Of a stretch of 64,000 nt of DNA, positions 58,969 through 60,066 are shown one piece after another. The DNA is from an uncultured Chlamydiae bacterium (GTDB lineage Bacteria; Chlamydiota; Chlamydiia; Chlamydiales; SM23-39), in the NCBI GenBank assembly GCA_963730605.1, contig CAVSSM010000001.1, positions 320,001 to 384,000 on the forward strand. The letters run 5' to 3'. A program made the position numbers and the translations under genes. Each line of letters starts with the position of its first letter. The stretch's first letter is position 1. The notes under the pieces are model-generated. The model saw nothing but the letters and a program-made list of their open reading frames with translations, searched no databases and was not told the DNA's origin.

Positions 58969-60066
58969 ATGGCTCCGGCAAAGTGCCTTTTTGGGTATAT
59001 ACACAAACAACTTCAAAAGTTGGTTTCTGCCTTCGTCGGACAGCCACTGCCTTTGAACCCGCCTGCACCCCACCCCAAAGACGATGCGTCTTCGGGGCCC
59101 CCCCCGGCGCTCAACTTTTTCAAGTTGAGCTGCAACGGTCCACCCCAAAAACGATGCGTTTTTGGGGACCTCGGACCCGGCGCCGCAAGCCTGGCTCAAA
59201 TTCAGGTCTGCTTCCTTGAAAAAAAAGCTCGAACCCCCGAGCTTTTTCAAGTGTCCGCAGCCTCGGCATATTCCCAACTTTTGAACTCATTTGTGTATAT
59301 TTTTCTTTTTTTTCCGAGTCTGATTGGGGCGATGCTTATAGGAAATCCAGCAGAGCCAGCTTTAGATAAAGCGGGACTCTTCACTTCTCCAGAATCTTGG
59401 GCCTCTCTCCGAGTCGCATTCTTGGAGGACTTTGTGTACCACCAGAGATTCCGAGACGAATTCACAATAGATGGAATTGAAAGCTCGAAGACCTTTGCGA
59501 CGCTCTCCACCAAGGCAGGGATGGCCACCCTGAATTTCGAAGACCGGATCGATCTCTACGGCATTCTCGGAGCGTCCAGCCTACAGCTCAACCATGAAAT
59601 TTTTTCCACCATGCAATTCTCATGGGGCTTCGGCGGCAAACTCGTCCTCTTCGAGGCAAAAAAGCTCTTCTTCGGACTCGATATCAAATACTTCGCGGCG
59701 AGCCAAAAGCCGCGCTATTTTCTGTCTGATAGGCTCCCTTTCAATGTAGTGGACGATTTTAAATTCAAATATAACGAAACGCAATTCTCCCTAGGGATGT
59801 GTTATCGCTATACTTTTATCGCCCCTTACGTTTACGCAACCTATTTAGTCTCAAAAATCGATCCCGATCCAATGATCGCCCTTGTCCAGTGGCCTTTAGA
59901 TACGAGTATCTTATTGGATGCGGAATGCAAGTCCTTCATTGCGCAGCGCAGGTGGGGCATGGCGGTCGGCGCCACGCTTCTCAGCGGTTTGACGGCGACC
60001 CTATCGGTCGAATCGCGCATGTTCAACCAAAACGCCATCGACATTAATCTCGACGTCCGATTCTAG
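58969..60066 (+). CDS. MOMP/PorB-like outer membrane protein with a 100-aa insertion in its signal peptide
   Basis: SD aaggagg. 'IGNPAEP' resembles the MOMP mature N-terminus. Alternating beta strands and a terminal 'VRF'. Confidence 0.78.
   Translation: MAPAKCLFGYIHKQLQKLVSAFVGQPLPLNPPAPHPKDDASSGPPPALNFFKLSCNGPPQKRCVFGDLGPGAASLAQIQVCFLEKKARTPELFQVSAASAYSQLLNSFVYIFLFFPSLIGAMLIGNPAEPALDKAGLFTSPESWASLRVAFLEDFVYHQRFRDEFTIDGIESSKTFATLSTKAGMATLNFEDRIDLYGILGASSLQLNHEIFSTMQFSWGFGGKLVLFEAKKLFFGLDIKYFAASQKPRYFLSDRLPFNVVDDFKFKYNETQFSLGMCYRYTFIAPYVYATYLVSKIDPDPMIALVQWPLDTSILLDAECKSFIAQRRWGMAVGATLLSGLTATLSVESRMFNQNAIDINLDVRF
58997..59300. mobile_element. Family B palindromic element, in frame within the porin gene
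   Basis: TIR atatacacaaa....ttcaaaagttgg / ccaacttttgaa....tttgtgtatat. gtatat is repeated exactly 300 nt apart. Confidence 0.9.

Follow-up and report, generated by a model that had tools for sequence, protein, structure and literature searches.

The window analysed here is a 64,000-nucleotide (nt) stretch of DNA from an uncultured Chlamydiae bacterium (assembly GCA_963730605.1, contig CAVSSM010000001.1, positions 320,001 to 384,000 of the forward strand). Near its right end lies a gene for a porin resembling the chlamydial major outer membrane protein (MOMP), and within the signal-peptide codons of this gene sits an additional 300 nt that orthologous genes lack and that has the characteristics of a miniature inverted-repeat transposable element (MITE). 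The first-pass annotation of this DNA, made from the sequence alone, had drawn attention to the hexamer GTATAT at 58995-59000 and again at 59295-59300, and proposed that an insertion of exactly 300 nt, in frame, interrupts the signal peptide of a MOMP-like porin. The sequence bears this out: the interval adds 100 stop-free codons after codon 11, the open reading frame (ORF) is unbroken from 58969 to 60066 on the plus strand, and removal of 300 nt leaves MAPAKCLFGYIFLFFPSLIGA followed by MLIGNPAEP, a short ancestral signal peptide and mature start that are corroborated by the orthologues described below. What had gone unrecognised is the nature of the repeat, which is not a chance hexamer but the end of a MITE together with the dinucleotide TA.

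Sequence and predicted structure both support the identification of the host gene as a MOMP-like outer-membrane porin. The protein matches the Pfam family Chlam_OMP (PF01308) at 23.6 bits, above the gathering cut-off of 20 and with an E value of 2.4e-5, the aligned part being residues 265-315 only. AlphaFold2, supplied with an alignment of 19 sequences, predicts a beta-barrel for the mature part with a predicted local distance difference test score (pLDDT) of 80-95; in Foldseek the best PDB matches of this model are the outer-membrane barrels FapF, OmpT, and EspP, with TM-scores of only 0.3-0.4. Nearly all of the aligned porin sequences have the C-terminus ...RF. The porin thus resembles Chlam_OMP in passing the family cut-off and in being a predicted outer-membrane beta-barrel that ends in Phe, but it is far shorter, with 244 mature residues against a 397-position profile, and it falls in a distant environmental-chlamydia branch. 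Its mature start, xxxGNPAEP, is one that we take to resemble the start of Chlamydia MOMP. Three paralogous MOMP-like genes are found in the source genome.

That genome (G000; 2.2 Mb, its contigs numbered C1 and upwards) was compared with other genomes, among them six of the same genus (G001-G006). The mature porin was matched in 29 of the 41 genomes searched, G000 included, and in all 24 genomes of the same family. We read the 19 best orthologue loci (L032-L050), one of which (L046) has its C-terminus cut off by the end of a contig and was excluded from the protein alignment. This comparison, which the first-pass annotation had put forward as a check, showed that the 100 extra codons are missing from 19/19 loci and that each of the 19 instead has a hydrophobic presequence of 15-31 residues, with A or S last, directly before a conserved (M/L/I)xxGNP. 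In the closest orthologue (L032, from G003), which has 89% amino acid and 91.5% nucleotide identity to our gene in the mature part, the N-terminus reads MAPAQRFIAYMALFFPSLLGA, followed immediately by MLIGNPAEP, and lies behind the same GCTATAAGGAGGAAATG. Its DNA is near-identical through the promoter, the Shine-Dalgarno site, and the first codons, and where our gene has the insert it has only ...ATTGCGTATATGGCT..., with a single TATAT. The 60 nt upstream of the porin ATG, Shine-Dalgarno site included, are near-identical in both of the closest orthologues (L032 and L033), and the orthologues of G003 and G001 start with MAPAQ... and MAPARK..., respectively, with the same Shine-Dalgarno site in front. 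On the other side of the insert, FLFFPSLIGA aligns with the ALFFPSLLGA that precedes the mature Met in G003, and a small residue stands before xxxGNP in all 19 orthologues. Several orthologue signal peptides lack both a basic n-region and a Shine-Dalgarno site, and in one orthologue TTG is the only start available. Taken together, these alignments show a real and lineage-specific insertion that occurred after the split from the closest sequenced relative, at codon 11 and inside the hydrophobic core of the signal peptide. The mature part that follows has a ratio of nonsynonymous to synonymous substitution rates (dN/dS) of 0.20 relative to G003, and its dN to the outgroup L033 is 0.120, compared with 0.124 for G003, so that the insert-bearing allele has no excess of nonsynonymous change.

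From its termini and its relatives elsewhere in the genome, the insert is shown to be a non-autonomous transposon, a MITE of 298 nt plus a putatively duplicated TA, belonging to a modular and hairpin-rich family (Table 1). We take the TA to be duplicated because this is the rule in the IS630 family of insertion sequences (IS). In its own genome the repeat family gives 61 matches; merging of 201 blastn high-scoring segment pairs yields 102 loci, which together cover 11,941 bp. Among these are seven nearly full-length copies, at 87-94% identity, of which six keep both ends: 5/6 begin with TATACACAAAC (TATAC) and 6/6 end with GTATA (mostly TTTGTGTATA). A TA is present at both ends in 5/6 full copies, with the proviso that all copies and the candidate partner IS begin with TATAC, so the TA could belong to the element itself. 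Many shorter copies retain both ends and are deletion derivatives. Of the six genomes G001-G006, four also carry the family (65 matches in G003, 43 in G006, 17 in G001, and one in G002), and it is missing from G004 and G005. The porin copy has few private changes overall; those that set it apart from the other copies are a run of eight Cs and indels of -2 and +2. Together with runs of eight As (59219-59226) and eight Ts (59306-59313), this C run sets the reading frame of the insert.

Table 1. Features of the porin locus (window coordinates) and genome-wide loci of the related repeats and the candidate partner (contig coordinates in G000).
Feature	Position	Strand	Remarks
Shine-Dalgarno-like AAGGAGG	58960..58966	+	precedes porin ATG at 58969
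MOMP-like outer-membrane porin gene with insert	58969..60066	+	365 aa; orthologues ~265 aa
Ancestral signal-peptide start, MAPAKCLFGY and first bases of I11	58969..58999	+	now split from the hydrophobic region (h-region)
Left terminal inverted repeat arm	58997..59023	+	27 nt, 89% complementary to 59274-59300; motif recurs at ends of other copies
TA, left copy	58998..58999		putative target-site duplication
MITE proper	59000..59297	+	298 nt, no transposase; in-frame read-through gives residues 11/12-110
Hairpin module copy 1 (CCACCCCAAAGACGATGCGTCTTCGGGGCCC)	59070..59100	+	~31 nt; no stop in six frames
C8 homopolymer	59098..59105	+	private to the porin copy; other copies have GGGGACCCCGG
Hairpin module copy 2	59140..59170	+	perfect 11-bp stem; no stop in six frames; occurs by itself in many ORFs of G000
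Right terminal inverted repeat arm	59274..59300	+	encodes ...QLLNSFVYI, start of the putative rebuilt h-region
In-frame TTG, codon 105, candidate internal start	59281..59283	+	would give 17-aa signal peptide MNSFVYIFLFFPSLIGA; in-frame GTG at 59293-59295 follows
TA, right copy	59298..59299		putative target-site duplication
Leftover ancestral signal-peptide codons, (I)FLFFPSLIGA	59300..59331	+	cleavage site IGA/M, from orthologue alignment
Mature porin	59332..60063	+	244 aa, intact, C-terminal ...VRF
Hairpin-module loci (L051-L070, L081-L082)	e.g. C1:697557-697688, C2:370435-370470, C2:206002-206034, C3:9343-9399
Second-repeat loci	C9:107167-107450 (L053), C7:30628-30924 (L054), C1:12761-12997, C4:3253-3495, C9:103300-103584, C1:448864-449079, C7:123721-123984, C11:81423-81632, others		one is the secretin case
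Partner IS copies	C1:117016-118162, C1:127227-, C2:55079-, C7:34858-		examples of at least 13

The insert is predicted to fold strongly as RNA (-120.9 kcal/mol, compared with -77.1 +/- 4.8 for shuffled sequences; z = -9.2). An Rfam scan of the insert returned no family, the two sub-threshold matches scoring 19 and 17 bits against gathering thresholds of 36 and 45, and on these scores an intron, a riboswitch, or another known RNA was ruled out. No terminator-like site was found inside the insert, and counts of promoters and terminators are in line with those in shuffles. At the protein level, the 99-aa open-frame peptide of the MITE contains no Pfam family, and when the inserted peptide was searched for among longer proteins in a large protein search, the sole match was the copy on the 45,621-nt contig C8 of the same genome; it does not appear to be a widespread protein domain. 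Further partial copies of the repeat family lie in the window at 50176-50311 (G000 C1:370176-370311) and 63561-63586, and about 2 kb before the window start (C1:317575-318042) units of 45 nt that stem from the hairpin module are arrayed in tandem, with several frames open (PPPKRCVFGDPGGGA repeated).

A candidate for the autonomous partner of the MITE is resident in the same genome. There are 29 matches to the transposase domain DDE_3 in G000, of which 14 are identical at 120.4 bits and correspond to open frames of 352 aa; two more DDE_3 groups (98.8 and 95 bits) are also multi-copy. The IS that carries the top-scoring transposase is 1121 bp long and present in at least 13 near-identical copies, a lower bound, and because the 13 aligned copies vary at only two columns, it looks recently active. 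Its ends are TATACCGCTCGTGATTCAAAATTTTG and, in reverse complement, TATACCCAAGGAAATTCAAAACTTGG, compared with TATACACAAACAACTTCAAAAGTTGG for the MITE; the two elements have TATAC, TTCAAAA, and TT.G in common, and the MITE matches the right end of the IS at 21/26 positions. According to the available text on ISY100, a member of the IS630 family, this element inserts almost exclusively into TA, which is duplicated, is excised by double-strand breaks in a cut-and-paste manner, and probably requires only its 24-bp inverted repeats in cis (PMC2170065). Given these rules (TA, and arms of ~24 bp) and the similarity of the ends, it is a reasonable inference that the MITE is moved in trans by the resident IS630-family transposase.

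Where the family lands in the genome bears on how it came to lie in a signal peptide. Among the 17 copies with both ends (34 ends), 10 ends (6 right and 4 left) lie no more than 20 nt upstream of an ATG that opens at least 100 codons, compared with 5.4-5.5% of random positions or random TA sites, which suggests that the family has a target preference for translation-start regions. With MITE ends enriched just before start codons, the insertion into the porin at 30 nt behind its ATG is in keeping with a family that lands close to starts. Copies are found 3-11 nt before lgt (Pfam LGT) and before genes that we take to be nadD-like and ndh-like on the strength of their N-terminal motifs. MITE ends 3-15 nt before the starts of long ORFs are seen at C1:92792-93013, C8:32201-32520, C2:37491-37686, C2:96831-97048, C9:163601-163786, C9:83637-83936, and others, and such start-adjacent ends displace any Shine-Dalgarno site.

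The hairpin module also travels alone. As a unit of ~31-35 nt it is read in frame in long ORFs as PGSPETHRFWG, GAPEDASSLGW, or PPQRRCVFGD, and in-frame inserts lie within or between the Pfam domains of IMPase, PlsX, MurG, an AMP-binding enzyme, PriA, RecD2, TamB, and others. In IMPase there are three tandem units, in PriA the module sits between Zn-finger cysteines, and NAD kinase and an E2 acyltransferase have it too. Several of these inserts can be placed in time by comparison with relatives: that of IMPase (42 aa) is missing from 4/4 orthologues of the genus; that of PlsX (12 aa) is common to G000 and G003 and missing from G002, G004, and G005; and a secretin has, right after its signal peptide, an insert of ~87 aa that is specific to G000, being missing from 6/6 genus orthologues. 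The secretin insert is one instance of a second repeat of ~85-100 codons (VIEKTGIG...SAANRLGSEDEKSESKP...HQNRFFNHERY) that contains the hairpin module. At least 10 ORFs include this second repeat in frame, in many cases at the N-terminus or close to it.

Two broader ideas about the family were considered and rejected. One was that the repeats prefer coding DNA: when a locus was counted as lying in an ORF if at least 60 codons were open on each side of it, this was so for 23/102 repeat loci, compared with 1020/2000 random sites (51%), so that the repeats are in fact depleted in ORFs. The other was that selection keeps one frame of the family open. In 5/6 full copies it is the forward frame of the MITE that is open, and the remaining copy has a different open frame, but at least one open frame was also present in 158-434 of 1000 dinucleotide-preserving shuffles of the copies, and the idea is unproven; the MITE sequence is simply stop-poor. 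An effect of this can be seen on the opposite strand of the locus, where the divergent neighbour of the porin gene, at 58651-58875 (-), codes for Hc1, a histone H1-like protein of 74 aa (Pfam Hc1, 58.3 bits) that is a hallmark of chlamydiae, and the open frame 58651..59277 (-) is this gene artificially lengthened through the MITE.

What, then, are the consequences for the porin? The best explanation overall, and one that we consider reasonably probable, combines a MITE, its mobilisation in trans, and a host allele that is still productive. The resident IS630-family transposase would have moved the MITE in trans, by cut-and-paste into TA. With the promoter and Shine-Dalgarno site conserved, transcription would read through the MITE, and translation would give a pre-porin with a 121-residue presequence, the first ~90 residues of which are Pro/Gly-rich, net-basic, and predicted to be disordered. 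The last 18 residues of the presequence (LLNSFVYIFLFFPSLIGA), half of them from the right repeat arm, would form the h-region and the ancestral IGA/M cleavage site, such that Sec export and signal peptidase I could release a normal mature porin while the MITE-encoded peptide is thrown away. For this last part, that the porin is exported and the long presequence discarded, we would put the case at almost evenly balanced, tipping slightly towards doubt. It corresponds to the 'safe haven' suggestion of the first-pass annotation, in which cleavage by signal peptidase disposes of the 100 residues, and which the sequence makes plausible.

Several properties of the predicted protein are consistent with export. 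The Kyte-Doolittle maximum over 11 residues is 2.32 (residues 109-119), compared with 2.18 for the reconstructed ancestral signal peptide and 1.79 for that of G003, and the cleavage site is unchanged in the insert-bearing allele. The presequence contains 10 K+R, 5 D+E, and 15 Pro, and in the AlphaFold2 model residues 22-89 have pLDDT <50, residues 94-117 form a helix, and the barrel that comes after is confidently predicted. Because co-oriented copies lie 3-11 nt upstream of lgt, the nadD-like gene, and other presumably needed genes, the element evidently does not abolish downstream expression, and judging from the ORFs that contain them, the tolerance of stop-free hairpin modules in frame is visible genome-wide, in housekeeping genes.

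A number of observations weigh against a productive allele, and many of them also speak for the reading that the MITE has inactivated this copy of the porin, either because the protein is unstable or stays unexported or because the mRNA is structured, leaving a recent and undecayed pseudogene whose open frame is luck. The probability of an open frame by chance is not small: one of the six combinations of orientation and phase is open for the porin copy, so that an open in-frame landing would be expected in about 1/6 of cases, or about 1/18 when the divisibility of its length by three is put down to luck as well, and the open state is accordingly weak evidence of selection. The presequence has no precedent in length among the 19 orthologues, being four times longer than any of theirs, and the transcript would be as strongly structured as the fold described above. 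With three MOMP-like paralogues, loss of this copy would be tolerable. The few private changes of the insert mean that the copy may be young, and the insertion is perhaps too recent for an intact mature part and an unchanged dN to tell us much. A public read search yielded 20 partial matches, all of them DNA contigs (best share 0.30), and no RNA run matching the stretch was among these. The depletion of the repeats in ORFs and the open frames among shuffles count against the favoured explanation as well, as do the partial nature of the match between repeat arm and IS and the dependence of the frame on three homopolymers for which the reads gave no copy-specific lengths. On the other hand, an inactivated gene sits less comfortably with the retention of the orthologue in 24/24 same-family genomes, with a mature part free of stops, frameshifts, and excess dN, with the intact h-region and cleavage site, and with a genome whose essential genes demonstrably retain repeat inserts in frame, one such insert being common to two species. 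We therefore regard inactivation as a serious contender, nearly as probable as export, although it too falls short of an even chance.

The porin might also be made from within the insert. If translation restarted at the in-frame TTG or GTG in the right repeat arm, the product would have a signal peptide of normal length (MNSFVYIFLFFPSLIGA or shorter) and the upstream 104 codons would be a separate, wasted frame. The resulting 17-aa peptide is like those orthologue signal peptides that have no basic n-region (MIYFLAFFLPVLPAFS and MHLIYLFLLFPIFLCS), and neither the missing Shine-Dalgarno site nor the TTG is foreign to the orthologues; moreover, where a MITE ends 3-11 nt before the ATG of a gene, translation of that gene must begin beside the same repeat arm. 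Yet no Shine-Dalgarno-like sequence precedes 59281, the TTG is buried in the 27-bp repeat-arm stem of the predicted fold, and the frame would be occupied by ribosomes that had initiated at the strong start upstream, all of which makes a restart improbable. Less probable still is the suggestion, raised in the first-pass annotation, that excision or bypass switches the surface protein on and off. The exact ancestral frame would return if the element and one TA were lost, the candidate partner IS appears active from its near-identical copies, and three 8-nt homopolymers in or beside the insert would offer a second route by slippage. Excision of IS630-type elements, though, usually leaves a footprint or is repaired from the sister copy. 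The four runs from the read search that we compared with the window (X1-X4) contain no contig of the same strain in which the flanks are joined, a result that at ~3x coverage says little about polymorphism; the only contig that skips the insert, in X4, joins 58987 to 59324 and comes from a relative that is ~95% identical. Among the papers listed from a search of open-access articles and bioRxiv there was no bacterial precedent for a switch by precise excision of an IS630 element or MITE, the insert matches no Rfam family, and excision by double-strand breaks, as given in the available text on ISY100, is not a programmed reversible switch (PMC2170065). The switch is thus left with no support.

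An error of assembly, in which a repeat copy was misplaced or homopolymer lengths are wrong, would be compatible with any of the other readings. The element is a multi-copy repeat whose interior cannot be distinguished from other copies in the read contigs, the read depth inside the insert being a mix of other family copies, and an assembly in 12 contigs suggests long reads, which miscall homopolymers. Run X1, however, represents the same strain at ~3x, and a 151-nt contig from it covers 58852-59002 with one mismatch, crossing the left junction and ending with three element-specific bases after the TA, although just 3-5 nt of it lie in the element and X1 may itself be the source sample. Private differences such as the C run and the -2/+2 indels are expected of a real, separate locus, and both flanks are collinear with the orthologues; misassembly consequently strikes us as very hard to credit.

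The productive-allele explanation can be carried one step further, to a view in which the 5' ends of genes, and signal peptides especially, are a selected landing niche for a coding-compatible transposon. Stop-free modules, TA sites by start codons, an arm (LLNSFVYI) that rebuilds the split h-region, and a signal peptidase that removes the peptide would together amount to a protein-level 'splicing' of selfish DNA. We consider this extension unlikely, if not excessively so.

Comparable behaviour has been described for other repeats. Rickettsia palindromic elements (RPEs; Ogata et al., 2000) are small repeats found in frame inside genes, as outlined in the accessible part of a review (PMC10969869). 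From what that text conveys, the likeness to the present family extends to palindromic or hairpin repeats, a bacterium of the obligate-intracellular type, many in-frame copies in unrelated housekeeping genes, and the addition of a peptide without breaking the protein. The differences lie in the Chlamydiota host, the 27-nt arms, the putative TA duplication, the candidate IS630-type partner, and the six-frame stop-free module, and also in the signal-peptide location, which finds no mention in PMC10969869 (0 occurrences of 'signal peptide'). We would accordingly treat the resemblance as functional only and do not file the element as an RPE. MITEs derived from IS630/Tc1-mariner elements, with ISY100 as the point of reference in the text available (PMC2170065), resemble it in having arms of ~24-27 nt, a flanking TA, no transposase of their own, and a multi-copy DDE_3 partner with similar ends, here a candidate one; the present family differs in its 21/26 end match, in an interior composed of separately mobile hairpin modules and tandem units, and in its enrichment at start codons. 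Intragenic ERIC sequences of enterobacteria and QMITE1 of Coxiella burnetii are, by their description in the same partial review text, MITE-like repeats with open frames that form in-frame fusions with host ORFs (PMC10969869); they have this fusion habit in common with our element but are unrelated families, likened to it by description only.

Searching open-access papers and bioRxiv turned up none that, by its title or the opening of its abstract, deals with chlamydial MITEs, and none that describes a MITE lodged in a signal peptide. Sec signals that work with extra residues before the h-region are known from the extended signal peptide region (ESPR) of autotransporters and from internalised signal sequences. 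ESPR extensions are conserved and ~25-30 residues long, whereas the porin insert would amount to 100 unrelated residues added by a transposon. The kind of event is therefore known, namely MITEs making in-frame fusions, as RPEs, intragenic ERIC, and QMITE1 do. Different here are the host lineage, a visible candidate partner of the IS630 type, the six-frame stop-free modules, landing close to start codons, and a position in a signal peptide with a rebuilt hydrophobic core.

Textbooks treat selfish DNA in frame within genes as a curiosity, for which Rickettsia is the main source. The same habit is now seen in an uncultured chlamydia-like bacterium, together with a visible candidate transposase partner and events that are recent and datable. 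Inserts of this type also matter to genome annotation, since they make ORFs longer and conceal signal peptides from prediction programs. Should the porin turn out not to be exported, the locus would represent a fresh case of a transposon knocking out a conserved porin. If it is still exported, 100 foreign residues can be accommodated by a signal peptide that is cleaved off, which would make the gene a natural experiment on the tolerance of Sec signals and would point to a route by which mobile DNA may persist cost-free in the genes of essential surface proteins.

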